From contig JAZNYU010000163.1 in NCBI GenBank assembly GCA_045594605.1, forward strand, positions 1 to 48,647: DNA of 48,647 nucleotides, written 5' to 3'. The notes beneath the pieces are model-generated. The model did not search any database. It was not told the DNA's origin and saw only the letters and a program-made list of their open reading frames with translations. A program made the translations under genes and the position numbers. Below, piece by piece: positions 10,898-29,322 of the stretch. Source of the DNA: Eubacteriales bacterium. Its GTDB lineage: Bacteria; Bacillota; Clostridia; Oscillospirales; CAG-272. Positions within the stretch are counted from its first letter, which is position 1. Each line of letters opens with the position of its first letter.

Positions 10898-10948
10898 ATG
10901 ATTTTGCATATAAAAACTGTCATTTCAAAAGGAAGGGTAGAGGAAGGT

Positions 10949-12172
10949 ATGGAATATATCACCGTCAAGCAAGCAGCCGAAAAGTGGGGCGTTACACCTC
11001 GTCGCGTGCAGATCTTGTGCGCCGAGGAGCGGATCAAGGGGGCGTATCGCTTTGGCAGGTCCTGGATGATCCCCGTTCGTGCGGTGCTGCCGAATGCCAG
11101 AAAAAAAGAGGATGAGCCCACACTCCCCATGCCGCGCAAAAGCCCCTTTTTGGATATGACCAATCTTTACAACAGGGCGGGGGGCGCGGATGAGTGTCTG
11201 GAAATGCTTGTCAACAACCCCGAGGCATACGCGCTTTTTGAGGCGTCCATTGCTTATCGGCGCGGCGACATCAATAAGGTATATGACCACGCCCGATACT
11301 TTTTGAGCTCCCGTTCCGGCTTTTATGCCATTCTTGGCGGCGGCATGCTGCTGGCTTTTTGCGCAATGTGGCGCGGTGACATTGGTCTTTGGAACGAAGC
11401 CAAGCGACACATTCTGGAAGCGCCTCACACCACCGAGGAGGAGCGCGAGATCATCTCTCTTTCCTTGGCAATTATAGATAGCTCTGTGTACGATAACAAA
11501 GATTACCCCACGTGGTTCACAATTGGCAATTTTGAAGCACTGCCTGCCGATTCGCACCCCGCGGCAAAGGTTTTTTACGTCAAATACCTCTACATGGGGG
11601 CGTTTGCGCTGGCATCCAAGCAGATGTCCTTGGAGGGGGCTACGGGACTTTCCCTGATGCGTATGATCCCCAACACCATCGAGCCGCTTATCACACAAGC
11701 GGTGGTGGATAAGACCGTTTTGCCCGAGATCCTTTTGCGTATGTCCTGCGCGGTCGCCTACTACAACGGGGGCATGAAGGAGCAGGCGCTCGCGCACATC
11801 GACAAGGCCGTTGCACTGGCACTCAAGGATAGGCTCTACGGAACGCTGACCGAGTACGTCCGTCACTTCCACGGCTTGCTTGAGGAGCGGATCGCGCTGG
11901 TCGATCCCTCTGCCGTTGAGGTCATCAAGGCGTTGTATGCCACCTACAGCGTGGGCTGGTCAACACTTTCGGGCAAGATCCGCAACCGCTATATTGCCAC
12001 AAACCTGACCGAGCGCGAAAGGGAAGTGGCAAAGCTCACCGCCTTTGGCTTCAAGGCGCCCGAGATCGCCGCTATGCTTTACCTTTCCGAGTCCACCATC
12101 AAGCAGACCATCACAAGAGTCCTTAACAAAACGGGGCTGAGTGAAAAACGTGAGCTTTATTGCATCCTTTAA
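10949..12172 (+). CDS. LuxR-family transcriptional regulator with an additional N-terminal excisionase/MerR-type HTH
   Basis: Start chosen at ATG 10949 (GGAAGG just upstream) over the track start 10898, which has no RBS. N-terminus ITVKQAAEKWGVTPRRVQILCAEERIKGAYRFGRSWMIP. C-terminal LuxR/GerE HTH LTEREREVAKLTAFGFKAPEIAAMLYLSESTIKQTITRVLNKTG. Helical middle region. Confidence 0.8.
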   Translation: MEYITVKQAAEKWGVTPRRVQILCAEERIKGAYRFGRSWMIPVRAVLPNARKKEDEPTLPMPRKSPFLDMTNLYNRAGGADECLEMLVNNPEAYALFEASIAYRRGDINKVYDHARYFLSSRSGFYAILGGGMLLAFCAMWRGDIGLWNEAKRHILEAPHTTEEEREIISLSLAIIDSSVYDNKDYPTWFTIGNFEALPADSHPAAKVFYVKYLYMGAFALASKQMSLEGATGLSLMRMIPNTIEPLITQAVVDKTVLPEILLRMSCAVAYYNGGMKEQALAHIDKAVALALKDRLYGTLTEYVRHFHGLLEERIALVDPSAVEVIKALYATYSVGWSTLSGKIRNRYIATNLTEREREVAKLTAFGFKAPEIAAMLYLSESTIKQTITRVLNKTGLSEKRELYCIL

Positions 12173-12321: not shown

Positions 12322-12639
12322 ATGAATAAAATACGCGACGGAGATCTTTATAAGGTCATAACGGTTTTTGGCAAGACCTTCGAGCTGTATTACGGATATT
12401 ACGATGAATCGGAAAAAGAGGGCAAGTATGGGGAGCCCATTCCCATCTATCCCAATTTCATCGAGGATCCGCTCTATACCAATGACGGCTACCCCTTCAC
12501 CACAGCTATGCAGGATGTTTGCTCCTACTTCAGAGGGAGCGAGGGCGAGGACAGTTGCCTTGCCTGCCGCCACTTTGAAGAGGGCGAGGAGCTCATTGGC
12601 AAATGCACCTGCACCAAGCGCAAAAAGGGTAGTCTGTAG
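12322..12639 (+). CDS. 105-aa cytoplasmic hypothetical protein with C-terminal Cys cluster
   Basis: GGAGG at 12313-12317. No signal peptide. C-terminal CSYF-x11-CLAC-x14-CTC then KRKKG. Immediately precedes the giant gene. Confidence 0.65.
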   Translation: MNKIRDGDLYKVITVFGKTFELYYGYYDESEKEGKYGEPIPIYPNFIEDPLYTNDGYPFTTAMQDVCSYFRGSEGEDSCLACRHFEEGEELIGKCTCTKRKKGSL

Positions 12640-12701: not shown

Positions 12702-15700
12702 ATGATGAGAAAAATGAACGTAAAGATGGCTATCCTCTCGCTTCTGATGGCAATGATCATGCTTGTGGGAGTGATTGCGGGAGCATCTAAAATGACAGAG
12801 GCCTCGGCGGCGGAGATTCCTGCTTTGCCCGCAACCGAGTACGTCTCTCCCCAAAGCCCCACACAGCCCGTCCCTTATGACGGCGTGCCCGTAACGCCGG
12901 GCAAGATCAGCTCCTCCAACTATCGCACCTACGGTCTTACCGACGATAATTGGAGTCAGTACAACGGCTACTATGCTATCCGCAACGCAAAAGAACTTTA
13001 CGGCTTTGCAGAGCTCGTCAGAGCAACGCAATCCCCTAAGCAAAACGCGGTGCTCCTTGCAGACATTGTAGTCAATACCGAGGTATCTTTGGAGAACGGT
13101 GCGACCTACACATGGACGCATATGGTCAAGAATCCCGGACATTCCGCATATATAGATGGCTATGGAGGCACCTTTGACGGGAACGGATATTCCATCAGCG
13201 GTATTTATTCTCCCAGCGAAAAAACAAACTGGGGAATTTTCGGTTCCATTTCGGGTACAGGCGTTGTGAAAAACCTCGTGCTGAAGAATTCTCTTTTCAC
13301 AGCATTTGGCTCTGCCGCCCCGATTGCAGGCTACAATTACGGCCTTGTAAGCTCCTGCAGAATCGAGAGCAGCGTTATGATCTATCGTGATAAGACCTCA
13401 GGATCTGGGGCGAGCGGCATTACCGAGATCAGACATACTACCGAAACGGTAGATGCAAGTAACCAGACCTTTACCGGCGGCATTGAAAATTGCTTTTCTA
13501 ACGTAACGTTTAACATCTTTAAAAATAATTACGCTAATTTGAATAACAGCGGTGTTATTACGGCAAAGATGCCAATTCGAACCAAAGTTAACAACAACTA
13601 CGGTATCGAATCCGACGGTTTCAGACTGATCGGAGAGCTTTCCACCGATGTGGAAGGGAAGTGGACCACGCTCAAAACACAAAACGACGCGCACACCTGT
13701 ATTCCCATCACCCACAATCAGGTAAACGGAACCTGTTATTCTTCCGGACTTTCCGCATATACCTTCTGTGCAGTGTGCGAAAAGGTCCTCTCGGGTGAGA
13801 AGACCGTTCTTTACGGTCACACCTCGGACGAATTTTTCTATACGCAAAACAAGAATGACGAGCTCAAGCACGATAAGAGATATCTGTGCTGCACCGAGAT
13901 CGCAGAAACCACAGACCACACCTACAGCAACGAAGCTTGCTCCCTTTGCGGCTACGAGATGTTTGCTCGCATGGGCGACTATGCTTCCACCAAAGCGAAA
14001 AATCTTGTTATCACCTCCGACGTAACGGTTGAGGGAGATGATCACCTCCATGTTTCGTCGGGATATACGCTTACAGTCAATCCCGGTGTCACCCTGACGG
14101 TAAACAGCAATCTGTATAATGCGGGTACCATTATAAACAACGGTGCCATTATTGTAAAAGGGGCTTACTCCGGTGAGGGAACCGTTACCTGTGGGGAAAC
14201 GGCTACCTATCACCCCGCATTTAACGAGAACGGCTTCTGTCAGTTCTGCGGCGATGAGGATCACCCCCAGGTAGCGCCTCTTGTTGACGGTTACTATCAG
14301 ATCGGCAATGCAGGCCAATTGATGTGGTTCTCGAACTTTGTGGGCGAGGGCAACACCTCTGCCAATGCAAAGCTGGTGGCTGACATCGTCTTCAACGAGG
14401 GCGACCTCTCCGGTCTTAACGGCAAGACCGAGGGTTACCGCTTCTGGACGCCCATCGGCATGATCATGAATCATGAAAACGGCGTTGACAGCTTTGTGAC
14501 CTACACCGGCACGTTTGACGGTGACGGACACTTTATCAGCGGTCTTTACCACTTTGATTATTGGTCTTATGACGGTTACGCAGGCCTCTTTTCCAAGCTT
14601 GGAGCAGGCGGCGTTATCAAGAACGTGACCGTTAAAAATTCTTATATTGCAACCAGCCGCTTGGCGGGCGCGATTCTCGGTGAAAACCGTGGCGGTACTG
14701 TTGAGAACTGTCACAACGTAAACACCACCGTCGCATCCGCGGCAAGAGTGGGTGGCATTGTTGGTAGCAACACAAGCGGTATCATTAAATACTGTACCAA
14801 CGACGGCAACGTAAAATTCTTTATGGTAAACCCCGATCTCGCCTTTGGCTTCACCGAGTTTGGCGGCATTGCAGGCAGTACTGCAGGCACAATTGAGTTT
14901 TGCACCAACTATAGTGATATCATCAGCGCTGATGAAATCGGCGACGTTGGTGGTATCAGCGGTCAGGTTTATCATGGCATTGTCAGAAACTGTGTAAACG
15001 AAGGTAACATCAACGTCACCGACGGCACAAACTTTGGCGGTATCACGGGTTATCAATATCACGGTACTCTTACACGCAATATCAACTACGGCACCATCAC
15101 AGGCAGTGGCAATCTTGTGGGCGGCGTTATCGGTAACCCCCTTGGCAACGGCGGCAGATATACGCACAACTATACCGTTGGTGGTAGCGCATGCGGCCCT
15201 GTCAGCCGTGACGGCTGCTACTCGATCACCGCGGCGGAGCTTGCAAACGGACGTCTTGCATTTGAGCTTGGCATCGGTCAGGAGATCGGCGTGGATGCTC
15301 GCCCCACTGTTGGCGGTCCTGCCGTATACGCATACTTTAACGAGAGCGGTGTTGTCAATTACACCAACGATGCAAATTACATCTGCTACCATGCAGGCGG
15401 AACGGCTACCTGTGATGCAAGAGCAGTGTGCGACGGATGCAGAAATCCTTACGGTGACATTCCGGAGGGCGCGCACCAGTTCGAGATCACCGGACGCGAG
15501 GATAAGCCCAACTGTACCGTTTGCGGAGGCAGATGCGGCGTAGTCGCTCCTCACAACACCAACTATACGGACTATTGCGCAGTATGCGGCGATTGGATCG
15601 GTCCCGAGCTCGCTGAAGACGGCTTCTACGAGATCAAGACCTTTGGTAACCTGATGTGGTTTGCAGAAGAGGTCAACGCAGGGAACTATGGACTCAACGC

Positions 15701-18700
15701 AAGACTGATGAAAAACATCGTGGCTACCGTAACCTTCAGAAGCTACGATTGGAAGCCCATCGGCGGCTCTTCCTTCGACGACACGAGCGTTGGCTACGAG
15801 GGTGTGTTTGACGGTCAAGGATACACCATTGCCTTGTTCCCTCAGGCTATGACTCCCGAGCATGACAACGCAGTGCTTGGTCTGTTCGGCACTCTGAAAT
15901 CGGGTGCTGTCGTTAAGAACCTTTCTATTTCTAACCGTCAGGATAATTACCTTTCCAGCAAGGGCACGACCTATTCCTATGACGGTGAGTACACGGTCTA
16001 CTTTGGCCTGATCGCGGGCAGAGTGCTGAGCGGCGCAACCGTTTCCGACTGTCGCGTTGCCAACGGCTCCGTCTCCATCTCCAACGGTACTCTGGGTGCC
16101 ATTGTCGGCATTAACTACGGCACGGTGAAAAACTGCGTTTCCTACGGCATGACGCTCACAGGCCCTGAGGGCAGAGTTGGCGGCATCGTGGGTGACTACA
16201 ACGGCGGAACGGTCGTCAACTGCTTCACCACCTACACAAGCATTGGCTCTACCGCAGAGGGATTCGTTGGTACTTCCACCGGCTCTGAGGCAGGCATCAG
16301 CGAGGCAAGAATGGCATCGGGCGAGATCACGCACAAGATGAATGTTTACGCAGGCGCGGATGTTTGGTACCAAGAGATCGGCATTGGCGGACCCTTGATG
16401 AATAGCGAGAGCGATTACGTTGGAAAGATCGTTTACCTGCACAACTTTGGCGCGATCACCCTCTACTCCAACAAAACAAATGAATTCACCCTTTTGCAAG
16501 ATTTTGAGATCAAGAGCGGAAAGACGCTTACCATTCCCCAAAAGATGACCCTGATCGTTCCCGAGGGCGTTACCTTGACAAACAACGGCACGCTCATCAA
16601 GAACGGTACGCTGAAGGGCGAGGGAACACTAGACGGTCTTGGCAACTTCTACATGACCGAGATCGATCGCGATCTGATTCCCACTATCGGCGACATCGTT
16701 TATGATGGCAACGATCACACCAATGACGTTGATATCGCCGTAAGCGCAGTATTCTCGGCATTGGGCAAGACCTTTACTCCAAAGGGATATACCTTCCATA
16801 AAAACTTTACAAACGTGAAGGATGCAGGATATTACGAGATCGGATACGTTTTGGGAGCCGAAGAATATCTTGTCAGATTTAACGTAACTCCCTTGGCGGT
16901 TTCCAATGACAATGTTTCTTTGGAATACACCGAGGTGTTCTACAATGGCACCGAGCAGCAACCCGTCGCTCTTCTTGCGGGATTTGAGGTCAGCCTTGGC
17001 AAGGACTATTATATAACCTATGAGAACAACAAATCTGCCGGCACGGCAACTGCAACAGTCACCTTCCGCGGCAACTTCTCGGGAGAGTTCACAAAAGAAT
17101 TCACCATCAAGTCTGTTGTCATCGGCACCGAAGCGATTGCCGAGGCACCCGAGAGCATCGTCTTCAGCGGTCTGGAGCTGGATCCTGTAACGATTACCGT
17201 TGATGGCGTTCGACTTGTTCGTGACGTAGACTACACCGTAACCTACGAGAACAACGTTTACCCCGGCACCGCTACGGCAACGGTGGTTGGTATCGGTTCG
17301 GTTTCGGGCGAGGCAAGCTTCACCTTTGAGATCACCAAGCCCGCCTTCACCGTTACCGTGCTCGATCAGATACTCCCCTACAACGAGGATATCAACGTCA
17401 AGCCCTTTGACCACACGATGTACGAGGGGGAGGGTCTTGTTGAAGGACATACCGTAGTACTCGGTGAGCCTTTGATTTCCGGCGATACCGATGAAATGAT
17501 CACTGTTCTGCAAATTCTGGATGCCAACGGCATTGACGTTCTGGAATATTACGACATCACCGTTCTTGCCACCGGCAAGTACCATATGTTCTATGATGCG
17601 TATGTTTGGGACAACGACGGTTATCACTGGCGCAATTGCGCATACAACTGCGACGAAAAGGCAGATTACGAGAAGCACCACGGCGGCGTTGTAAGCTGCT
17701 CCGAGGACGGTAGCTGCATTGACTGCGGTCTGACTTACCTCTTTGCTACGGGCGAGCACAACTACGTCAACGGTGTTTGCGGCTGCGGCTTCGATCCCGA
17801 GTTCGTATTTGTAGTAGATACCGACAACAACGGTCAGCACAGCGGCTCCGAGACCGGTTTTTCGGCAAACGGAATCCACAACATCTTCTACTATCCTGAC
17901 AATCAGTACGTGGTTGTAAAGGACTTTGCAGGCGATTTTTCCGGCGTGGGGCAGAATGACACCACCGTTATCCTTGACTTGCGCGGTCACACCATTGATA
18001 TGACCGATGCACTGTATCCCTTCTCCATGCAGGCACAAAACCTCGTTGTCATCTTTAAGAGCACGACAGAGGAAATGGGCGTTCTGATCGGAGCTACCCA
18101 ACTGGCAGTTGATTCTGTTACCTTTACACTCGATAACATTCGTCACGAGGGCACTCTCTACAATATGGGCACGATCCACGTTATCAACGGCTCGCTCCTG
18201 TATTCTGAGATCACCAACCGCGGCACCATCTATCTCCCCGAGGGATACGATCTTTCTACCTTTGTTTCCTACACGGGTAGCGGAACGCTTTACGTTGGCG
18301 AAAAGGCGTTTGTTTACAACGCCGAGAGCGGCAAGCTCGAGTGCGCATCCGATCACGATTGGGTAGATGCTGACTGCACGAACGCAAAGTATTGCTCCAT
18401 TTGTGAAAAGATCGACGGTGAGCCTCTCGGCCACAGCACAAGCGGCCCTGCAACCTGCGAAGAGGATGAGGTCTGCACAGTTTGCTCCGCTATCGTCAAC
18501 GAAAAGCTCGGTCACACCGAGGAAGAGATTCCCGCAGTTGAGCCCGGATGCGATACCGTCGGCTCTACTGTAGGCAGCAAATGCACAACCTGCGGCGAGT
18601 TTATCATCACTCCCGACGTGCTTCCCGCACGCGGACACACCGAGGCTTCTCCCGTGATCGAAAACGTGGTCAACAACGGTTGTGATGCTCCCGGCAGCTA

Positions 18701-21038
18701 CGAGGTCGTCGTTTACTGTACGGCATGCGATTACGTGTTCTCGAGAGAGACTATTCACACCGACGTGATCGGTCACAACGAGACCACCACAAGATACGAC
18801 TACAAGGACCCCACCTGCCAAGAGGAAGGCTACGTGGTTTACAGATACACCTGCACCGTGTGCGGTGAATACCGTGATAGCGAAAGAATCACCCTCGAGG
18901 CAACCGGTCACACCCCCGGTGAGTCCTATATCTCCAGCAGCATGGATCCTTCCTGCACGTATGAGGGATATGTTACAACCATCACGCCGTGCGCAAATTG
19001 CAGCGAGAACGTGGAAGAGAAGAAGGAGATCATTCCCAAACTTCCGCACACTCCCAACATCGATGCCCCCACTTGCACCCAAGAGCAGTCCTGCACGGTC
19101 TGCTACGCATTGATCGAGACCTTCGCTCCTCATGCCTACGTAGATACCGTAATCGAGGCACAGTGTCTTAACAGCGGTGGCATCCACCACGAATGCAGCC
19201 ATTGCGGCTCCAGCTATTTTGAGGTCACGCAAGAGGCGCTCGGTCACTCCTACAACATCGAGGCAGCTACCTGCGAGGAAGATAAGTATTGCCTGCGTTG
19301 CGACGTCATTGATGAATACGCAACCGGACACGAGGATGTTTGGGCAACCTGCACCACTCCTCACTACTGCGCTACCTGCGAAAAGGTCCTCTCTCCCGCT
19401 ACGGGACACGTCTTTAACGCAGAGGATGCTCCTACCTGCACAACCGAAAAATACTGTATCTCCTGCGGTCATGTAGAAGCAGAGGCACTCGGTCACGATC
19501 CCGATAAGGAAGCGCCCACCTGCGACGAGCCCGTATATTGCACAAGATGTCCTGCACTTCTGGAACATGCAATCGGCCATACCTATAACAATGAGGGCGG
19601 TGTTACCTGTACCGAGGATTACTACTGTACGACCTGTGGCGAAATATTCGGATACGCACGCGGACACGTACCGATGTTCGGTGACGTACAGTGCGAGGTC
19701 GACAACACCTGCATCAATTGCGGATTTGTAGTGGCGGAGGCAGCCGGTCACGCTTATGAGGCTGCAATACTCAGAGAGGTGAGCTGCCAAGCCGATGGTA
19801 TAATCTCTTACACCTGCCAAAGATGCTATTACTCCTACGAGGAATATCAGCCTCAACTGGAGCACGATCTCGTCAAGCAGGATGACGTTCCTTCTACCTG
19901 CACCCAGCAAGGACACACAGGCGCTACGGTCTGCTCTTTGTGCGGCCAGGTATTCGCTGCCGAAACAGTCCTGCCGTTTGCAGAGCACAAAGACCTTGAC
20001 GGCGACGAGCTTTGCGACGTGTGCGGCATTGACTTGAGTGTCGCTCATGATTGCGTGGACGGCGATAACAATCACAAATGCGACGTTTGCGATGCAACGC
20101 TTACCGTTCACGAGGTTACCGATGGCAAGCACACCTGCCTCTATTGCGGCGAGCGTGCAAGCGATTGCGAACAAAACGAATTTGGTTACTGTGACATCTG
20201 TCAGGTCAAGATCATCGGTCAAAGCGTTCACCTTAGCTCCGGCATCTCCATGCGCTACTTCGTTCAGGTGATCGATCCCAGCCTCATCGAAGGCAAGACT
20301 GTGACCATGGAATTCCACTTTATGGGCGACGTAAGAACCGTTGAGGGCGATTTCCTTAGTGAGACCTATATCCTGTTCTGCTTTGAGGGTATTGCTCCCG
20401 AGTATATGGGAGAGAACATCGATGCGTACCTCCTCATCGACGGTCAAAGAGTGGCTTCCAAGCTCTCCTACAGTGTTAAGACGAACCTGACCAATCTTCT
20501 TGCAAAGAATGCAAACGACGCGACATTGGTTCAACTGATCAACGATACCCTTGCTTACGGTGCGGCGGCACAAAAGGCAAAGAATTACAATGCAGATGCT
20601 CCCGTTACCGATGGCGTAGAGGGATTTGCACCTTCGCAAAACGTTCCCACCGAGCAAACGGTTGTTGAAAACAACACCGATGAGACGGCAAAGATCGAGT
20701 CCTATGAGGTCGTTGTAGGCAAGGTTGCTTACTTCCGCTTTGCCATCAAGCTTGCAACCTTTGATGGCATTACCATCCGCGTAAACGGAGAAGAGATCAG
20801 CCTTGACCACCTTGTTGTCAAGGGCGGCGGAGACTACGTGCTTTTGAGTGAGGGACTTATCATGGGTCTGGATTCTCCCGATTTCACCGTTGAGATCCTC
20901 AAGGACGGTGTCAGCGTTTCCAAGGTTGCAACCGGCATTGGCGCATTCGCCAATGAAGCGGCTTCGACCGAACAGAAGGATCTCATGCTTGCTATCTACA
21001 ATCTGCTGGCGTCGGCTCAAGCATATTTGTGGGGATAA
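12702..21038 (+). CDS. 2778-aa secreted giant surface protein: three GLUG-motif beta-helix-like regions, MBG/Ig-like repeats, long His/Cys module array, unassigned C-terminal domain
   Basis: RBS AGAAAGG at 12686-12692. Signal peptide MMRKMNVKMAILSLLMAMIMLVGVIAGASKMTEASA. The pattern Y(Y/F)xIxxxxxLxxF...FDGxG(Y/H)xISG(I/L)Y occurs three times, with GLUG-like GGIVG/GGIAG/GGISG/GGITG turns. YDGN / ITYENN...GTATATV MBG-like repeats. No LPXTG, SLH or C-terminal TM seen. Confidence 0.9.
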   Translation: MMRKMNVKMAILSLLMAMIMLVGVIAGASKMTEASAAEIPALPATEYVSPQSPTQPVPYDGVPVTPGKISSSNYRTYGLTDDNWSQYNGYYAIRNAKELYGFAELVRATQSPKQNAVLLADIVVNTEVSLENGATYTWTHMVKNPGHSAYIDGYGGTFDGNGYSISGIYSPSEKTNWGIFGSISGTGVVKNLVLKNSLFTAFGSAAPIAGYNYGLVSSCRIESSVMIYRDKTSGSGASGITEIRHTTETVDASNQTFTGGIENCFSNVTFNIFKNNYANLNNSGVITAKMPIRTKVNNNYGIESDGFRLIGELSTDVEGKWTTLKTQNDAHTCIPITHNQVNGTCYSSGLSAYTFCAVCEKVLSGEKTVLYGHTSDEFFYTQNKNDELKHDKRYLCCTEIAETTDHTYSNEACSLCGYEMFARMGDYASTKAKNLVITSDVTVEGDDHLHVSSGYTLTVNPGVTLTVNSNLYNAGTIINNGAIIVKGAYSGEGTVTCGETATYHPAFNENGFCQFCGDEDHPQVAPLVDGYYQIGNAGQLMWFSNFVGEGNTSANAKLVADIVFNEGDLSGLNGKTEGYRFWTPIGMIMNHENGVDSFVTYTGTFDGDGHFISGLYHFDYWSYDGYAGLFSKLGAGGVIKNVTVKNSYIATSRLAGAILGENRGGTVENCHNVNTTVASAARVGGIVGSNTSGIIKYCTNDGNVKFFMVNPDLAFGFTEFGGIAGSTAGTIEFCTNYSDIISADEIGDVGGISGQVYHGIVRNCVNEGNINVTDGTNFGGITGYQYHGTLTRNINYGTITGSGNLVGGVIGNPLGNGGRYTHNYTVGGSACGPVSRDGCYSITAAELANGRLAFELGIGQEIGVDARPTVGGPAVYAYFNESGVVNYTNDANYICYHAGGTATCDARAVCDGCRNPYGDIPEGAHQFEITGREDKPNCTVCGGRCGVVAPHNTNYTDYCAVCGDWIGPELAEDGFYEIKTFGNLMWFAEEVNAGNYGLNARLMKNIVATVTFRSYDWKPIGGSSFDDTSVGYEGVFDGQGYTIALFPQAMTPEHDNAVLGLFGTLKSGAVVKNLSISNRQDNYLSSKGTTYSYDGEYTVYFGLIAGRVLSGATVSDCRVANGSVSISNGTLGAIVGINYGTVKNCVSYGMTLTGPEGRVGGIVGDYNGGTVVNCFTTYTSIGSTAEGFVGTSTGSEAGISEARMASGEITHKMNVYAGADVWYQEIGIGGPLMNSESDYVGKIVYLHNFGAITLYSNKTNEFTLLQDFEIKSGKTLTIPQKMTLIVPEGVTLTNNGTLIKNGTLKGEGTLDGLGNFYMTEIDRDLIPTIGDIVYDGNDHTNDVDIAVSAVFSALGKTFTPKGYTFHKNFTNVKDAGYYEIGYVLGAEEYLVRFNVTPLAVSNDNVSLEYTEVFYNGTEQQPVALLAGFEVSLGKDYYITYENNKSAGTATATVTFRGNFSGEFTKEFTIKSVVIGTEAIAEAPESIVFSGLELDPVTITVDGVRLVRDVDYTVTYENNVYPGTATATVVGIGSVSGEASFTFEITKPAFTVTVLDQILPYNEDINVKPFDHTMYEGEGLVEGHTVVLGEPLISGDTDEMITVLQILDANGIDVLEYYDITVLATGKYHMFYDAYVWDNDGYHWRNCAYNCDEKADYEKHHGGVVSCSEDGSCIDCGLTYLFATGEHNYVNGVCGCGFDPEFVFVVDTDNNGQHSGSETGFSANGIHNIFYYPDNQYVVVKDFAGDFSGVGQNDTTVILDLRGHTIDMTDALYPFSMQAQNLVVIFKSTTEEMGVLIGATQLAVDSVTFTLDNIRHEGTLYNMGTIHVINGSLLYSEITNRGTIYLPEGYDLSTFVSYTGSGTLYVGEKAFVYNAESGKLECASDHDWVDADCTNAKYCSICEKIDGEPLGHSTSGPATCEEDEVCTVCSAIVNEKLGHTEEEIPAVEPGCDTVGSTVGSKCTTCGEFIITPDVLPARGHTEASPVIENVVNNGCDAPGSYEVVVYCTACDYVFSRETIHTDVIGHNETTTRYDYKDPTCQEEGYVVYRYTCTVCGEYRDSERITLEATGHTPGESYISSSMDPSCTYEGYVTTITPCANCSENVEEKKEIIPKLPHTPNIDAPTCTQEQSCTVCYALIETFAPHAYVDTVIEAQCLNSGGIHHECSHCGSSYFEVTQEALGHSYNIEAATCEEDKYCLRCDVIDEYATGHEDVWATCTTPHYCATCEKVLSPATGHVFNAEDAPTCTTEKYCISCGHVEAEALGHDPDKEAPTCDEPVYCTRCPALLEHAIGHTYNNEGGVTCTEDYYCTTCGEIFGYARGHVPMFGDVQCEVDNTCINCGFVVAEAAGHAYEAAILREVSCQADGIISYTCQRCYYSYEEYQPQLEHDLVKQDDVPSTCTQQGHTGATVCSLCGQVFAAETVLPFAEHKDLDGDELCDVCGIDLSVAHDCVDGDNNHKCDVCDATLTVHEVTDGKHTCLYCGERASDCEQNEFGYCDICQVKIIGQSVHLSSGISMRYFVQVIDPSLIEGKTVTMEFHFMGDVRTVEGDFLSETYILFCFEGIAPEYMGENIDAYLLIDGQRVASKLSYSVKTNLTNLLAKNANDATLVQLINDTLAYGAAAQKAKNYNADAPVTDGVEGFAPSQNVPTEQTVVENNTDETAKIESYEVVVGKVAYFRFAIKLATFDGITIRVNGEEISLDHLVVKGGGDYVLLSEGLIMGLDSPDFTVEILKDGVSVSKVATGIGAFANEAASTEQKDLMLAIYNLLASAQAYLWG
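18342..20201 (+). repeat. Protein-level array of about 20 His/Cys modules (C-x5-C-x2-C and C-x9-11-C-x2-C, mostly ending in GH) inside the giant gene
   Basis: Hand count of 20 CxxC motifs (CSIC, CTVC, CTTC, CTAC, CTVC, CANC, CTVC, CSHC, CLRC, CATC, CISC, CTRC, CTTC, CINC, CQRC, CSLC, CDVC, CDVC, CLYC, CDIC). Most are preceded by a single Cys at fixed spacing and flanked by (L/T/R)GH. Confidence 0.85.
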
Positions 21039-21050
21039 GAAAGGCTGAAG

Positions 21051-21093
21051 ATAGGCTGTCATTTTGACGGCAACCGTTTTGGTGACAGCCTAT
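21051..21093 (+). other. Intercistronic compound hairpin between the giant gene and the 304-aa lipoprotein gene
   Basis: ATAGGCTGTCA...TGACAGCCTAT with an inner ACGG-CAA-CCGT stem. No U-tract follows. Confidence 0.5.
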
Positions 21094-21131
21094 TCAAACA
21101 ACAAAAATAATAACGAAATAAAGGTGAAAAT

Positions 21132-22046
21132 ATGAAAAAATCAATCTTAATACTTACATTTTCCATATTGATCGTTGCTTTGTGCGCCTTTCTCGGTTCT
21201 TGTAAGAGCGAGTGTGTTCACACGTATGACAACGCTTGCGACACCGCCTGCAACCTGTGTGGTGAAACTCGCGCGGTATCGCACGATATGACAGATGCGA
21301 CCTGCGACACCCCCGCCACCTGCAAGGTGTGCGGCAAAGCAGGGGATGCGGCGCTCGGCCACAAGTGGGCAGAGGCAACCTGCGAAAAGGCTGCAACCTG
21401 CAGAGCCTGCGGCAAAACCAACGGCGAAGCACTCGGTCACAAATGGACAGATGCAACCTGCACCACTCCCAAGACCTGCGGCACTTGCGGCGAGACCGAA
21501 GGCGAAGCACTTGGTCACAAATGGACAGATGCGACCTGCACCACTCCCAAGACCTGCGGTGTTTGTGGTGAGACCGAGGGCGAAGCACTCGGCCACAAGT
21601 GGGATAACGCAAGCTGCACCGCATCCAAGACCTGTGGCGTTTGCGGCGAGACCGAAGGCGCTGCGGCAGGGCACGATTGGGTAGATGCAACCTGTACCGC
21701 TCCCAAGACCTGTGATACTTGCGGCGAGACCGAAGGCGAAGCGCTTGGTCACGAGTGGACAGATGCTACCTGCACTGCTCCCAAGACCTGTGGCGTTTGC
21801 GGTGAGAGCGAGGGTGACGCACTGCCTCACACTCCCGATGCCGATGACGGCGACTGCACAACGGCTGTTCACTGTTCCGCCTGCGGCGACGTTCTGAAGA
21901 ACGCTACCGACGGACACATTGACTCCGATGAGAGCGGACTGTGTGACCGTGAGGGATGCAACCAAACGGTTGAATCCAGTATTGAAGAAGAAACCGAGCC
22001 CGGCAGTGGCGGCGGGTTCGACTTCCCAATGGATGAAAACCCCTAA
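21132..22046 (+). CDS. 304-aa lipoprotein consisting almost entirely of 26-aa His/Trp/Cys repeat modules
   Basis: RBS AAAGGTGAAAATATG. Lipobox CAFLGS-C. The module HKWTDATCTTPKTCGxCGETEGEALG is repeated. Acidic C-terminal tail. Confidence 0.85.
   Translation: MKKSILILTFSILIVALCAFLGSCKSECVHTYDNACDTACNLCGETRAVSHDMTDATCDTPATCKVCGKAGDAALGHKWAEATCEKAATCRACGKTNGEALGHKWTDATCTTPKTCGTCGETEGEALGHKWTDATCTTPKTCGVCGETEGEALGHKWDNASCTASKTCGVCGETEGAAAGHDWVDATCTAPKTCDTCGETEGEALGHEWTDATCTAPKTCGVCGESEGDALPHTPDADDGDCTTAVHCSACGDVLKNATDGHIDSDESGLCDREGCNQTVESSIEEETEPGSGGGFDFPMDENP
21282..21827 (+). repeat. 7 x 78-bp in-frame tandem repeat (26-aa module H-x-W-x3-C-x5-C-x2-C-G-x7-G)
   Basis: Unit starts (CAC His codons) are at 21360, 21438, 21516, 21594, 21672 and 21750, preceded by a more divergent unit at 21282. 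The period is exactly 78 bp. Confidence 0.9.
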
Positions 22047-22058
22047 AGCTATCAATAA

Positions 22059-22095
22059 AAAAGAGGGGCTGCTCGGTTGAGCAGCCCTTCTTTTA
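22059..22095 (+). terminator. Rho-independent terminator ending the giant-gene/lipoprotein operon
   Basis: AAGAGGGGCTGCTC-GGTT-GAGCAGCCCTTCTT followed by TTTT. Confidence 0.85.
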
Positions 22096-26298: not shown

Positions 26299-29200
26299 TC
26301 AAGCGACGGGTTGGTAAACAACCTCGATAGCCATAACACGAACCTGCTTGCCGTTAGAACCATTCTTCACGGAGTTAAGAACTACGGAAGAACCGGAAAC
26401 AGTAATGGAGGTATTGCAGATATCGGTAGTAGTGCCATCAACATAGAGGAAAGCATAGGTGCCGGTTGCGGTAGTAATCTTAATGGAAACCAGCTCATAA
26501 CCATCTGCAACACTAATCGTAATGGTTCCTGCAGGAGAGTCGGTAGCATAAATACGAATATGGTCGCCATTGTATGCCTTACCGGTGTTGGAGCCGCCAT
26601 TGATCTTAACACTTACGTTTTCATCAAGATTGAATGTTTGCTTTGTGGTGGAGGATGTCCAACCATATTCGGTAATCAGATCTGCAACAGTCTTGCTTGC
26701 AGTAATGGTCTCTACGCCTTGAATTGCGCCGCAAGAGCAAACGCCGTTAACATAGGTATGATCAATGGGTTCGCCAACTACTGCGCCGCAAACTTTGCAT
26801 GTAGCTGCCTCGGTGCAGGTTGCTTCGGTGAAGTTCGAGCAGGTGTGTGTGCCGGTGATTTCAGCAGTTGCGCCTGCTGCAATTTGGCGAGCACCACTAT
26901 AAGTGTCCATCGAACCTACAACGGTGATAACATCGTTCAAGCTAACCTTAGTGGAAAGTCTGAAGAGGTAAAGAGAAGTGCCGTTTTCATCGGTGATGGT
27001 AACAGAGATGTTATTGTATTGATCACTCCAAGCGGTGTTGATCTTGGTGACGGTACCTGTTACACGAACCATTGTGCCATCTTCAGCTTCGAGTGCTTCA
27101 GAAATCGTGTAGTCGTAAATAACATCATAGCTTGCATCGTGACCGGTAACGGTAGCGGTTGCACCTTGTGCAATTTGTCTGTTGCCATTGTAGGTAGCCA
27201 TAGTACCTTCAATGGTAACGATATCACCAAGGGCAACGTTAGTTGCAAGTCTGTAGATGTAAAGCTCGTCGCCGTTTTCATCGATGACGGTAACAGTAAT
27301 GTTCTTGTAGGTGGTATTCCAAGCGGTGTTGATTTCGGAAACGGTACCGCTGATGGAAACCTTTTTGCCATCCACAGCTTCGAGAGCTTCGGAAATAGTC
27401 ATTTCAAAGTAGTGGTTGGGATCGTCCTTGCCGCAGGTTTCGCAAACGTAATCAACGTAACTGTGGCCGAGAGCAGCGATTTCTTCTTGCTCTACAAGGG
27501 TTTGTTCACAAACGGAGCAGTAAGAACCGTCGGTAAGACCGTCTTCGGTGCAGGTAGCTGCCTTGCCGGGAACAACAACTGTGGTGTGTCCGAAAGCAGG
27601 GATCTCAACATAGGTGGTGTAGTTGCAACGGGTGCAAGCTTCGTATGCTTCGTGACCAGCCTCGGTGCAGGTAGGAGCCTTTGCTTCGTATGTTACTTTA
27701 TCGTGGCCGAGAGCGGGAACTACTTCTTGAGCGGTAAGGATATCGCCGCAAACAGAGCACTTAACACCAGCGGTAAGACCGGTTTCGGTGCAAGTGGGAG
27801 CAACTGCGGGAATTTCTTCTTCGGTGTGACCAAGAGCGGGGATTTCTTGATAGGTGGAGAAATCGCAACGAGTGCACTTTACGTACATATTGTGGCCTGC
27901 TTCTGTGCAAGTAGGATCCTTCTTAGGATGGATCGTAGAAGTATCATGGCCGAGAGCGAGGACGATTTCCTGTTCTACGAAGATCTTGCCACAAACGGAG
28001 CAGTGCTCGCCGGCAGTAAGACCTGTCGTTGTACAAGTAGGCTCTACAGCTGCAAGAGGTGCGTGAGTGTGGTCAATAACGGGAGTTTCTTGTTGTGCTA
28101 CGAGAACTTCGCCGCAAACGGAGCAGTGCTTACCTTCGGTAAGACCTGTCTTGGTGCAGGTAGCGGGAACTGCTGCGTCAATAGCCTCTGTATGTCCGGT
28201 AGCAGGAACGGTTTGTTGTGCTACTTTACCTACGGAGCAACGAGTGCAGTGTCTACCCTCTGTAAGACCGGTTTCGGTACAGGTAGGAGCAACAGCCTCA
28301 TCAATTACGAAATCGTGACCGAGCGGGAGGATCATCTCTTTCTTTACGATGACTTCACCACAAACGGAGCAGTAGGAATGCTTGTTATAACCGGGAGTAG
28401 TACAGGTAGCAAGCTTCATCTTTACTTCAACAACGGTGTGACCAAGAGCCTCAACGGTTTCTTGTGCTACGAAAACTTCGCCACAAGCGGAGCAGTGAGA
28501 GCCTTCGGTAAGACCGGTTTCGGTACAAGTGGGAGCTACAGCTGCATCAACAACGGTGGTGTGACCGAGAGCTGCAACAACTTCCTGTTCCTTGGTGGTT
28601 ACGCCACAAACGGAGCAGTAAGCGCCTTCGGTAAGACCGGCTTCGGTGCAGGTGGGAGCTACGGCGTCAACAACAACGTTGGTGTGGCCGTTTGCAGGAA
28701 TGGTTTGGGGAGCTGCAAGAACCTTGCCACAGTCAAGGCAGTATTCGCCTGCGGTAACACCTTCGGTGGTGCAGGTGGGTTCTACTGCTACAACGGTGTA
28801 GGTAGTGTGGCCGTGAGCCTTAACGGGGGTTTGTGCGATGATAACAGTCTCGCAAACAGAGCAGTGAACGCCTTCGCTGAGACCGTCTTCGGTGCAGGTG
28901 GGCTCTACGGGAGCGTCAACAACGACGGTGTGGCCGAGAGCGGGAACCTTTTCTTGTGCAAGCAGAGTCTTGTTGCAAACCGAGCAGTGAACGCCTGCAG
29001 TCAGGCCCTTTTCGGTGCAAGTGGGAGCTACAGCTGCATCAACAGCCTCGGTGTGGCCGAGTGCTTCGATTACTTCTTGTGCTACGAGAACTTCTTTGCA
29101 CCTGGAGCAATGTTGGCCTTCGGTACGACCGGATTTTGTACAAGTGGGAGCAATTGCTTCATCAACCACAGGAATGTGGCTGCATTTCAGCGGGTTGTTT

Positions 29201-29322
29201 CCTTCGGGACCCCAGATGCTGACGGGGGGGATATCTTCAAAGAGGATATCGCACGATGCCAGTGTCAGCAGAATCAGTGCCGTAAGGGATGCCAAAACGA
29301 GTAATTTGAGAATCTTTTTCAT
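26299..29322 (-). CDS. 1007-aa surface lipoprotein: 14 x 41-aa His/Cys modules, two OB-fold-like domains, one short Cys module, unassigned C-terminal domain
   Basis: RBS GGAGGG. Lipobox LLTLAS-C. Modules such as HTEAVDAAVAPTCTEKGLTAGVHCSVCNKTLLAQEKVPALG. Duplicated segment TISEALEA.DG..V...GTV..INTAW...Y.NI.VT..DENG..LY..RL.T.V.L.D..T..G.M.TY.G.RQIA.GATA. Confidence 0.85.
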   Translation of the reverse strand: MKKILKLLVLASLTALILLTLASCDILFEDIPPVSIWGPEGNNPLKCSHIPVVDEAIAPTCTKSGRTEGQHCSRCKEVLVAQEVIEALGHTEAVDAAVAPTCTEKGLTAGVHCSVCNKTLLAQEKVPALGHTVVVDAPVEPTCTEDGLSEGVHCSVCETVIIAQTPVKAHGHTTYTVVAVEPTCTTEGVTAGEYCLDCGKVLAAPQTIPANGHTNVVVDAVAPTCTEAGLTEGAYCSVCGVTTKEQEVVAALGHTTVVDAAVAPTCTETGLTEGSHCSACGEVFVAQETVEALGHTVVEVKMKLATCTTPGYNKHSYCSVCGEVIVKKEMILPLGHDFVIDEAVAPTCTETGLTEGRHCTRCSVGKVAQQTVPATGHTEAIDAAVPATCTKTGLTEGKHCSVCGEVLVAQQETPVIDHTHAPLAAVEPTCTTTGLTAGEHCSVCGKIFVEQEIVLALGHDTSTIHPKKDPTCTEAGHNMYVKCTRCDFSTYQEIPALGHTEEEIPAVAPTCTETGLTAGVKCSVCGDILTAQEVVPALGHDKVTYEAKAPTCTEAGHEAYEACTRCNYTTYVEIPAFGHTTVVVPGKAATCTEDGLTDGSYCSVCEQTLVEQEEIAALGHSYVDYVCETCGKDDPNHYFEMTISEALEAVDGKKVSISGTVSEINTAWNTTYKNITVTVIDENGDELYIYRLATNVALGDIVTIEGTMATYNGNRQIAQGATATVTGHDASYDVIYDYTISEALEAEDGTMVRVTGTVTKINTAWSDQYNNISVTITDENGTSLYLFRLSTKVSLNDVITVVGSMDTYSGARQIAAGATAEITGTHTCSNFTEATCTEAATCKVCGAVVGEPIDHTYVNGVCSCGAIQGVETITASKTVADLITEYGWTSSTTKQTFNLDENVSVKINGGSNTGKAYNGDHIRIYATDSPAGTITISVADGYELVSIKITTATGTYAFLYVDGTTTDICNTSITVSGSSVVLNSVKNGSNGKQVRVMAIEVVYQPVA
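27463..29178 (-). repeat. 14 tandem His/Cys modules (12 of exactly 41 aa / 123 bp, one of 40 and one of 39 aa)
   Basis: Module residues are H1, C13, C24, C27 and G41, counted by hand from His49 to His620. The boundary codons CAC at 29176-29178 and 27463-27465 were verified on the sequence. Confidence 0.85.

Follow-up and report, generated by a model that had tools for sequence, protein, structure and literature searches.

Rib domains and the G5-E repeats of SasG/Aap serve as length-variable stalks of Gram-positive surface proteins, and both are metal-independent beta domains of 70-130 residues found in LPXTG-anchored proteins. Here we describe an array of another kind, encoded by a lipoprotein gene (positions 21132-22046) on contig JAZNYU010000163.1 of an Eubacteriales bacterium of the Clostridia (Oscillospirales, CAG-272); "the window" refers throughout to the whole stretch of DNA that was analysed, 48,647 nucleotides in length. 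As in the Rib and G5-E proteins, tandem modules would project a tip, copy number differs by whole units, and purifying selection acts on the peptide. The modules of the window array, however, are 26-residue Cys/His units that follow directly after a predicted N-terminal lipid anchor, and they show no sequence or fold relation to Rib or G5-E repeats. The reading we favour, with some reserve, is that the product is a length-variable, probably zinc-stapled stalk presenting a conserved C-terminal peptide that tethers the giant protein encoded by the adjacent upstream gene.

Two groups of zinc modules also bear comparison. Tandem C2H2 arrays, such as those of CTCF and ZBTB7A, share with the window array a head-to-tail succession of modules of about 26-28 residues; in both, a module offers four Cys/His ligands, and a T-x-x-P-x-x linker comes before its CxxC knuckle. 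The window array differs from them in its Cys3His ligand set, in its spacing, in having three short strands and no helix in the predicted structure, and in ligands that are apparently interleaved between units; its protein is predicted to be extracellular and lipid-anchored while C2H2 proteins bind DNA, and the resemblance is best taken as convergent. Zinc ribbons and cross-braced domains (the TFIIB ribbon, IBR/RING domains and C1, PF00130) resemble the window unit in having a beta-hairpin with a CxxC knuckle at its tip, and the apparent sharing of ligands between adjacent elements recalls the way in which sites interleave in C1 and RING domains. The window array has one knuckle per unit, and would form an open-ended chain rather than a closed two-site domain.

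True relatives are found in a family of membrane-anchored proteins of Clostridia with the signature H-x6-C-x5-C-x2-C, exemplified by P0046 from a Ruminococcus flavefaciens metagenome-assembled genome. These proteins have the same module, the same 26-residue period, the same rule for how arrays start and end (described below) and the same position immediately after the lipobox. Most of them carry a C-terminal enzyme or binding domain, whereas the window protein and its orthologues have only a short conserved tail. Judged by its sequence, the window gene is a cargo-less member of this very large family of lipid-anchored stalk proteins.

The module family and the lipoprotein array

More than 5,100 homologous proteins were found at E<=1e-3, with E-values down to 1e-112; those named by source come from metagenome-assembled genomes of Clostridia, Oscillospiraceae and Ruminococcaceae. 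Architecture was tabulated from the best 120 homologues, in which arrays comprise 3-11 units at a near-constant 26-residue period; most arrays begin close to a lipobox or signal anchor, some 30 residues away or less. Behind the array lie cargo domains as varied as polysaccharide deacetylase (PF01522), SleB-type hydrolase (PF07486), LRR_5, dockerin, FMN_bind and MBG, and some homologues carry source names as SH3 or DUF11 proteins. The sequence logo of 811 units reads H-[STD]-W-x-[DE]-A-T-C-T-x-P-K-T-C-x-x-C-G-x-T-E-G-E-A-L-G. By this architecture, the array serves as a stalk between membrane anchor and cargo in thousands of Clostridia proteins. No Pfam-A or NCBIfam model describes the module, scans of the lipoprotein, the giant protein, a small neighbouring protein and relatives giving only sub-threshold or spurious hits (GDH_HM2, C1_1, GLUG). 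Searches of PDB sequences by phmmer and by profile found no relative of it, and the module was absent from the literature searched, literal peptide strings included, with no mention in a polymorphic-toxin review.

The window lipoprotein follows the family pattern, with seven units at an exact 26-residue period, and the module occurs in three proteins of the 48-kb window in all. The features of the gene are as follows.

21132..22046, + strand: lipoprotein gene, 304 residues plus stop, from the listing of open reading frames and translation; >5,100 homologues
21132..21203, + strand: predicted signal peptide MKKSILILTFSILIVALCAFLGS and lipobox Cys24 (L-G-S-C), fitting a PROSITE PS51257-type rule
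21213..21281, + strand: N-terminal cap unit C28-x-H30-TYDNAC-DTAC-NLC, of subtype HxYDNxCDxxCNxCG, invariant in orthologues
21282..21827, + strand: seven canonical 78-bp / 26-residue units, H-x6-C-x5-C-x2-C-x9, from His51 onward
21828..21914, + strand: 29-residue unit HTPDADDGDCTTAVHCSACG.., second subtype H-x8-C-x5-C-x2-C, residues 233-261 (H233), conserved in orthologues
21915..21959, + strand: terminal unit H262-IDSDESGL-C271-DREG-C276 (H-x8-C-x4-C, residues 262-276), lacking the first cysteine, as homologue arrays also close
21960..22043, + strand: acidic tail, its last 11 residues GGFDFPMDENP (22011-22043) being the conserved C-terminal motif
22066..22087, no strand assigned: terminator after the gene, a GC-rich hairpin of 9 pairs (7 G-C) followed by a T-run

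A Shine-Dalgarno sequence, AAGGTG, lies 6 nt upstream of the gene. The N-terminus, MKK-SILILTFSILIVALCAF-LGS-C24, has the basic n-region, hydrophobic h-region and lipobox of a bacterial lipoprotein signal, as judged by a lipobox rule ([LVI][ASTVIG][GAS]C, Cys at position 15-35) that was applied by eye. The signal peptide is near-identical across the orthologues P0008, P0020 and P0070, and the product is predicted to be an N-terminally lipid-anchored extracellular protein. A Cys-rich precursor of the SCIFF/ranthipeptide type, that is, of a ribosomally synthesized and post-translationally modified peptide, was considered and rejected: the protein has 304 residues with a signal peptide and lipobox, and no radical-SAM domain occurs among the neighbouring open reading frames scanned.

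The original prediction, made from the letters of the window, described the gene as essentially a 7 x 78-bp array of a Cys3 module with a His codon recurring every 78 bp. The spacing is exact, with His codons at 21282, 21360, 21438, 21516, 21594, 21672 and 21750 and a further one at 21828; as an independent check, Tandem Repeats Finder gives a period of 78 (5.5 copies, 78% matches, score 441) at 21396-21823. The seven exact units stand, although they make up 182 of the 304 residues and are flanked by three related units: the cap unit (residues 28-50, C-x-H-x5-C-x3-C-x2-C), the 29-residue unit and the terminal unit. There are indeed three cysteines per unit, but since the histidine is as invariant as the cysteines, the module is better named His+Cys3. 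After Cys24, the predicted lipidation site, the protein contains exactly 30 cysteines and 10 unit-starting histidines, for 10 units.

The flanking units are not peculiar to this protein. A 651-residue relative in locus L007 (L numbers denote the loci compared) visibly carries many tandem copies of the 29-residue subtype. The cap-unit subtype, in the form HxYDNxCDxxCNxCGxxR (window residues 30-50), recurs widely as a tandem repeat in its own right, about 22 residues long (metagenome loci L029, L032, L039, L040 and others); in L040, HVYDNACDTTCNICGYVRTVPD is repeated many times, and proteins with this repeat often end in a C-terminal transmembrane anchor. By its pattern, it is a third subtype of a His-Cys3 superfamily. 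Last units, in turn, carry an acidic loop of D-x-D-x-D-G-x-C-D type directly before the Cys pair: HIDSDESGLCD in the window lipoprotein (21915-21959; written D-x-D-x-x-x-G-x-C-D), HKDLDGDELCDVCG in the giant protein (residues about 2430-2450) and DTDHDYICDNGDC in the tail region of L018. In sequence, this loop looks like a calcium loop of EF-hand or thrombospondin type fused to the knuckle.

The array is no artefact: it is old, and purifying selection acts on it. Such selection on the peptide, and the absence of recent slippage, had been proposed from a comparison of two units, 21438-21515 and 21516-21593, and the count is correct: of nine nucleotide differences, seven are synonymous and two fall in one codon (ACT to GTT, Thr to Val), for which the binomial probability of at least seven synonymous changes under neutrality is 9e-4. 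Across all 21 unit pairs, the proportions of synonymous and nonsynonymous differences, pS and pN, are 0.54 and 0.23, and the nonsynonymous to synonymous rate ratio (dN/dS), a calculation the original prediction had suggested, ranges from 0.06 to 0.47; differences at the three codon positions number 133/111/251. Nucleotide identity between units is 53-88%, with a longest in-register identical run of 26 nt. Because the units are no more alike than this, the array reflects neither assembly collapse nor fresh slippage.

Repeat number in related genomes, a further comparison that had been suggested, varies between lineages.

Window lineage: 7 canonical units, 304 residues
L003 / L004 lineage: 5 canonical units, 255 residues
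L001 / L002 lineage: 4 canonical units, 227 residues
L005 lineage: 3 canonical units, 200 residues

These four orthologous lineages share signal peptide, cap units and tail, and the gaps in the array are whole 26-residue units, which supports the view, one of two offered originally, of the lipoprotein as a length-variable spacer. Canonical units 5, 6 and 7 of the window (u5, u6 and u7) are positional orthologues of units in other lineages, at 82-87% nucleotide identity. Any two of units u3, u4 and u6 are 78-88% identical, u3 standing closest to each of the others (u4 88%, u6 87%), and this similarity suggests lineage-specific duplication; the first unit of L005 looks, from its sequence, like an in-register fusion of u1 and u5. 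Independent assemblies of one lineage agree in copy number (L001 = L002, L003 = L004). The variation thus lies between lineages and is not slippage-prone. More distant relatives with the same tail type have 317-651 residues, and in these the 29-residue subtype is expanded instead.

Probable metal sites and predicted fold

The ends of the arrays suggest how the ligands are grouped. With the three cysteines of a unit numbered C1 to C3 in order, C1 is present in 767 of 767 internal units, and 104 of 121 arrays end with a unit that lacks it. The other 17 continue with oddly spaced units beyond the reach of the script; the window protein is among them, and its true last unit lacks C1. At the opposite end, 86 of 98 N-terminal arrays have a cysteine no more than four residues before the first histidine, most often at -2, and in some arrays a histidine takes its place at -2 (for example CGHTH, VHKH). 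Internal variant units have altered loop lengths, and none has ever lost a ligand. The window lipoprotein conforms at both ends, with C28-x-H30 at the start and H262-x8-C271-x4-C276, without C1, at the close, and the same cap/end rule holds in both other arrays of the window.

Each metal site is therefore most likely, so far as sequence can indicate, composed of C1 of one unit together with the histidine, C2 and C3 (the CxxC knuckle) of the next, which would give ten complete sites in the window lipoprotein. The 30 cysteines equal three for each of ten histidine sites, with no remainder only under this interleaved assignment, and the assignment is preferred because it is the only scheme that gives every site four ligands and leaves none unused. 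Two other groupings were rejected. A site within one unit, {H, C1, C2, C3}, leaves the cap cysteine C28 unused and the last unit one ligand short, and with a finger-like site, {C2, C3, next H, next C1}, three sites of the window lipoprotein would be incomplete. The interleaved geometry is plausible in the predicted structure, where C1 and the next histidine would flank the base of the strand 2-3 hairpin, with the CxxC knuckle at its tip.

Cys3His with a CxxC knuckle is among the usual ligand sets for structural zinc, and each site most likely binds a single structural metal ion, probably Zn2+. Structural metal is favoured over disulfides because cysteine and histidine interchange at the cap, the number of cysteines per unit is odd, the histidine is invariant, and the organisms are probable anaerobes; Clostridia, Oscillospiraceae and Ruminococcaceae of the gut are anaerobes. 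The metal ions would staple neighbouring beta-hairpins tip to base, stiffening the chain.

AlphaFold2 modelled the whole lipoprotein with a mean predicted local distance difference test (pLDDT) score of 82; block means were 92-98 across residues 71-230, and 97-98 in most blocks. A three-unit fragment scored 96.7. In the prediction, each unit consists of three short strands and no helix. The acidic tail has a pLDDT of about 50, and is for that reason probably disordered.

Comparisons with solved structures gave resemblances that we read as analogy, not homology. The weak, non-significant Foldseek matches are nearly all zinc proteins: the TFIIB and Brf1 ribbons, eL43, RPA12, the IBR domains of Parkin and RNF216, and a DGK C1 domain. 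A search of BFVD found one true homologue, an array in a fragment of an SLH-domain protein, and nothing informative on fold class. The Pfam model C1_1 (PF00130) reached 21.2 bits, below its cut-off of 26.5, and aligned at profile positions 1-19 only. When a profile of the unit was searched against the PDB, the best sequence-profile matches were tandem C2H2 fingers, at E 2e-4 to 1e-2, covering linker and knuckle only. Assignment to the C2H2 zinc fingers was rejected, as the ligands are spaced C-x2-C-x9-H-x6-C or H-x6-C-x5-C-x2-C instead of C-x2-4-C-x12-H-x3-5-H, and the predicted structure has no helix. Classical zinc ribbons lead the weak Foldseek matches, all at E>1; the window unit has one knuckle.

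The giant protein, its cassette and the lipoprotein tail

The stalk lipoprotein lies at the end of a run of four genes, of which the first three and their intergenic element are listed here with the domains of the giant product.

10898..12172, + strand: LuxR/GerE-type regulator, 424 residues, with N-terminal HTH_17 (Pfam GerE 1.5e-9, HTH_17 1.5e-6); first gene of the putative cassette
12322..12639, + strand: small Cys-rich protein, 105 residues, without signal peptide; second gene
12702..21038, + strand: giant secreted protein, 2778 residues, with N-terminal signal/anchor, GLUG-like regions, MBG-like region, His-Cys3 array and C-terminal domain
18342..20207, + strand: module array of the giant protein, about 20 units H..C..CxxC of 26-46 residues each, at residues 1881-2500
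20208..21035, + strand: C-terminal 276-residue domain of the giant protein (residues 2503-2778), ending ..LAIYNLLASAQAY in the window; common elsewhere
21051..21093, + strand: conserved hairpin with arms ATAGGCTGTCA / TGACAGCCTAT (invariant GGCTGTC/GACAGCC), from RNAalifold, with no compensatory changes

That the giant protein contains the same module as the lipoprotein had been seen earlier, and its array indeed comprises about 20 modules; it starts with ECASDH, its first module is the canonical HDWVDADCTNAKYCSIC, and its last units lack C1. Its Pfam match to GLUG is weak only. The giant protein had also been said to have no recognisable wall or membrane anchor. No LPXTG-like motif, no SLH or other Pfam anchor domain and no hydrophobic stretch beyond the N-terminal one was found in it, so in that respect the statement stands; it needs qualification in that the 276-residue terminal domain is a candidate anchoring or docking domain, judged from its distribution. 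In a phmmer search of 1.84 billion representatives, this domain had 1,181 matches at E<=1e-3, of which 390 reached E<=1e-10. Its usual place is the very C-terminal end of a large secreted protein (with CBM9, CBM26, metallophosphatase and others), and most homologues end ..LA.ALYRYG.SA.AY. A word-index search had returned 2 proteins only, where the index-free search gave 1,181. The domain has no Pfam family and no relative in the PDB.

An orthologue of the giant protein is 55% identical in L001, and a 2778-residue orthologue is also present in L002. A scan of a genome collection with the C-terminus of the giant protein gave no match, and a scan with a two-sequence alignment gave one locus. In each of the 4 lineages found, about 95 bp separate the giant orthologue from the lipoprotein gene downstream of it, while the outer flanking genes differ. 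In L007 and L018-L022, a distant lineage, the same four gene types occur in another order (regulator, small protein, lipoprotein, big protein), and the big protein carries the terminal domain of the window giant at its N-terminus (for example in L022). The functional link between lipoprotein and giant gene that had been suspected from their adjacency therefore receives support from gene order, which favours viewing the two products as functional partners.

The regulator is 47-48% identical to regulators that neighbour related stalk lipoproteins in L006, L009, L018, L020 and L023, and 68% identical in L076. The small protein is 48-51% identical to the open reading frame that follows the regulator in L006, L007, L009, L018-L021, L023 and L076. 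Together they are kept beside related stalk lipoproteins in at least nine metagenome loci, and they resemble the regulatory half of a cassette of four genes. The small protein, which has no Pfam family, is cytoplasmic, and its C-terminal part has the pattern C-x12-C-x2-C-x13-C-x-C. In L002 (181-1893, and at the start of L001), a 570-residue stalk lipoprotein just upstream of the giant gene replaces regulator and small protein; it combines a cap unit and two canonical units with a YD/RHS-repeat domain.

The 93-nt spacer between giant and lipoprotein genes (21039-21131) is 81% identical across five loci, where the flanking proteins are 55-87% identical. Alternative pairings are possible at its hairpin, because GGCTG occurs twice upstream. 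Rfam had no match for the spacer or the lipoprotein gene, and no T-run follows the hairpin at 21051-21093. The hairpin may act in processing, stability or attenuation, and so set how much is made of one product relative to the other.

The lineage-specific conserved feature of the lipoprotein is its tail, not its units. The tail ends in GGFDFPMDENP, GGIDLPMDENP or GGFDFPMDPNL in orthologues and in EGIDLPLVPNN in the distant relatives L007 and L018-L022, for a conserved C-terminal motif G-[FI]-D-[FL]-P-[ML]. Because this peptide is specific to the subclass while the module is generic, we propose the tail as the docking element. The lipoprotein would be a lipid-anchored rod of ten mini-domains without a cargo domain, bearing an acidic tail of about 28 residues at its tip; the stalk would hold the tail at a set distance from the membrane, and the tail would tether or position the co-encoded giant surface protein, whose docking site may be the terminal 276-residue domain. 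Positioning of the giant protein is the most likely role of the stalk in view of the conserved four-gene cassette.

Elsewhere in the window, a second lipoprotein is encoded at 26299-29322 on the - strand (1007 residues, lipobox LASC). Its stalk has about 16 copies of a long, 41-residue variant of the module (GHT..VDAAVAPTCTE.GLTEG.HCSVCG..), which accounts for the 123-bp tandem repeats at 28400-29082, and is followed by two OB-like repeats, one canonical 26-residue unit and a C-terminal domain. This protein obeys the cap/end rule, starting with KCSH and closing with a last unit, HSYVDYVCETC, that lacks C1. At 611-699, a 24-bp tandem repeat of 3.7 copies lies inside the open reading frame 523-3204 (893 residues, with a Bact_surface_Ig-like domain); its consensus probably encodes a Pro/Thr-rich linker.

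Competing explanations and significance

Both proteins carry the module, their genes are adjacent in the four lineages found, and the giant protein has no classical anchor; these facts led the original prediction to propose that the lipoprotein anchors the giant protein through module-to-module contacts. That mechanism was not borne out, and we consider it unlikely. Because the module recurs in over 5,100 proteins whose cargo is unrelated, and in a third protein of the window, its being shared points to no specific partner. The predicted structure is a self-contained single-chain rod at pLDDT 97-98, and the conserved lineage-specific feature is the tail rather than the units. The number of units, moreover, varies from 3 to 7 across orthologues, with no obvious matching change in a giant protein of 2778 residues in the window and in L001/L002. 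It is similarly improbable that the lipoprotein is a metal-buffering or scavenging protein, a metallothionein-like extracellular store or chaperone for zinc or another thiophilic metal in which repeats provide capacity. Ten Cys3His sites in 250 residues, with no cargo domain, would suit such a role, but thousands of proteins use the same array as a linker in front of enzymes and binding domains, and the combination of invariant ligands, an equally invariant Trp/Ala/Pro/Gly framework and a confidently predicted fold is typical of structural sites. The window and the cassette contain no metal transporter or metal regulator, and the conserved neighbours are instead a surface protein and a LuxR-type regulator.

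Disulfide bonds occur in many Cys-rich modules outside the cell, EGF and disintegrin domains among them, and the weak Foldseek matches to this extracellular Cys-rich repeat include ADAM disintegrin regions. A metal-free rod, with cysteines in disulfide or other covalent cross-links and the histidine in some other role, nonetheless has little to recommend it when each unit has three cysteines, the cap adds one, the last unit has two only, and the histidine is invariant. The interchange of cysteine and histidine at the cap, the origin of the relatives in gut taxa known as anaerobes, and the match to the standard structural-zinc set all speak against it. A tandem repeat in probably metagenome-derived sequence, with no identical protein on record in the gene-position collection, could also raise suspicion of an assembly error or of very recent, functionless replication slippage. 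Such an origin is already refuted for practical purposes: the divergence between units (53-88% identity, identical runs of at most 26 nt, dN/dS 0.06-0.47) and the presence of positional orthologues of individual units in other assemblies leave it next to no probability.

Several observations weigh against the stalk-and-tether reading that we favour. Model confidence is low at the N-terminal cap (pLDDT <50 at residues 33-48) and again in the last unit and tail (residues 262-304), the very parts that carry the cap and tail arguments, and in Foldseek searches of the PDB with both the whole model and the three-unit model every match had E>1. The interleaved assignment of ligands comes solely from end-of-array statistics and stoichiometry. 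The three-unit orthologue in L005 lies on a 1.4-kb metagenome contig, where mis-assembly is possible. The long N-terminal hydrophobic segment of the giant protein could be an uncleaved anchor, making a separate tether unnecessary, and the giant protein shares its terminal domain with more than 1,000 other representative proteins. In its fullest form, the proposal has Cys3His zinc ions shared between consecutive 26-residue hairpin modules in a previously undescribed daisy chain, giving a stiff rod whose length changes in 26-residue steps, with the cargo-less subclass acting as a dedicated tether of giant adhesin-like proteins that lack sortase or SLH anchors, under its own regulator and in a mobile four-gene cassette. 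We offer this composite tentatively, as a serious possibility but not the expected outcome.

Repeat stalks and structural zinc modules are each known kinds; of interest here are an unannotated family, an unusual putative metal topology and a testable anchoring model for giant surface proteins. More than 5,000 predicted surface proteins from Clostridia of gut and rumen contain the module, for which there is no Pfam or NCBIfam model and no solved structure, and defining it would annotate many undescribed microbiome proteins. If its sites are zinc sites and interleaved, the array would be an extracellular poly-zinc rod, an architecture unseen among the solved structures compared, and a rod whose length changes in modular steps might find use as a rigid protein spacer. 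The conserved cassette offers a testable hypothesis for the surface retention of giant proteins that have no LPXTG or SLH signals. If the metal assignment is true, each protein of this kind would account for 5-20 extracellular metal ions, which would bear on the use of zinc by strict gut anaerobes.

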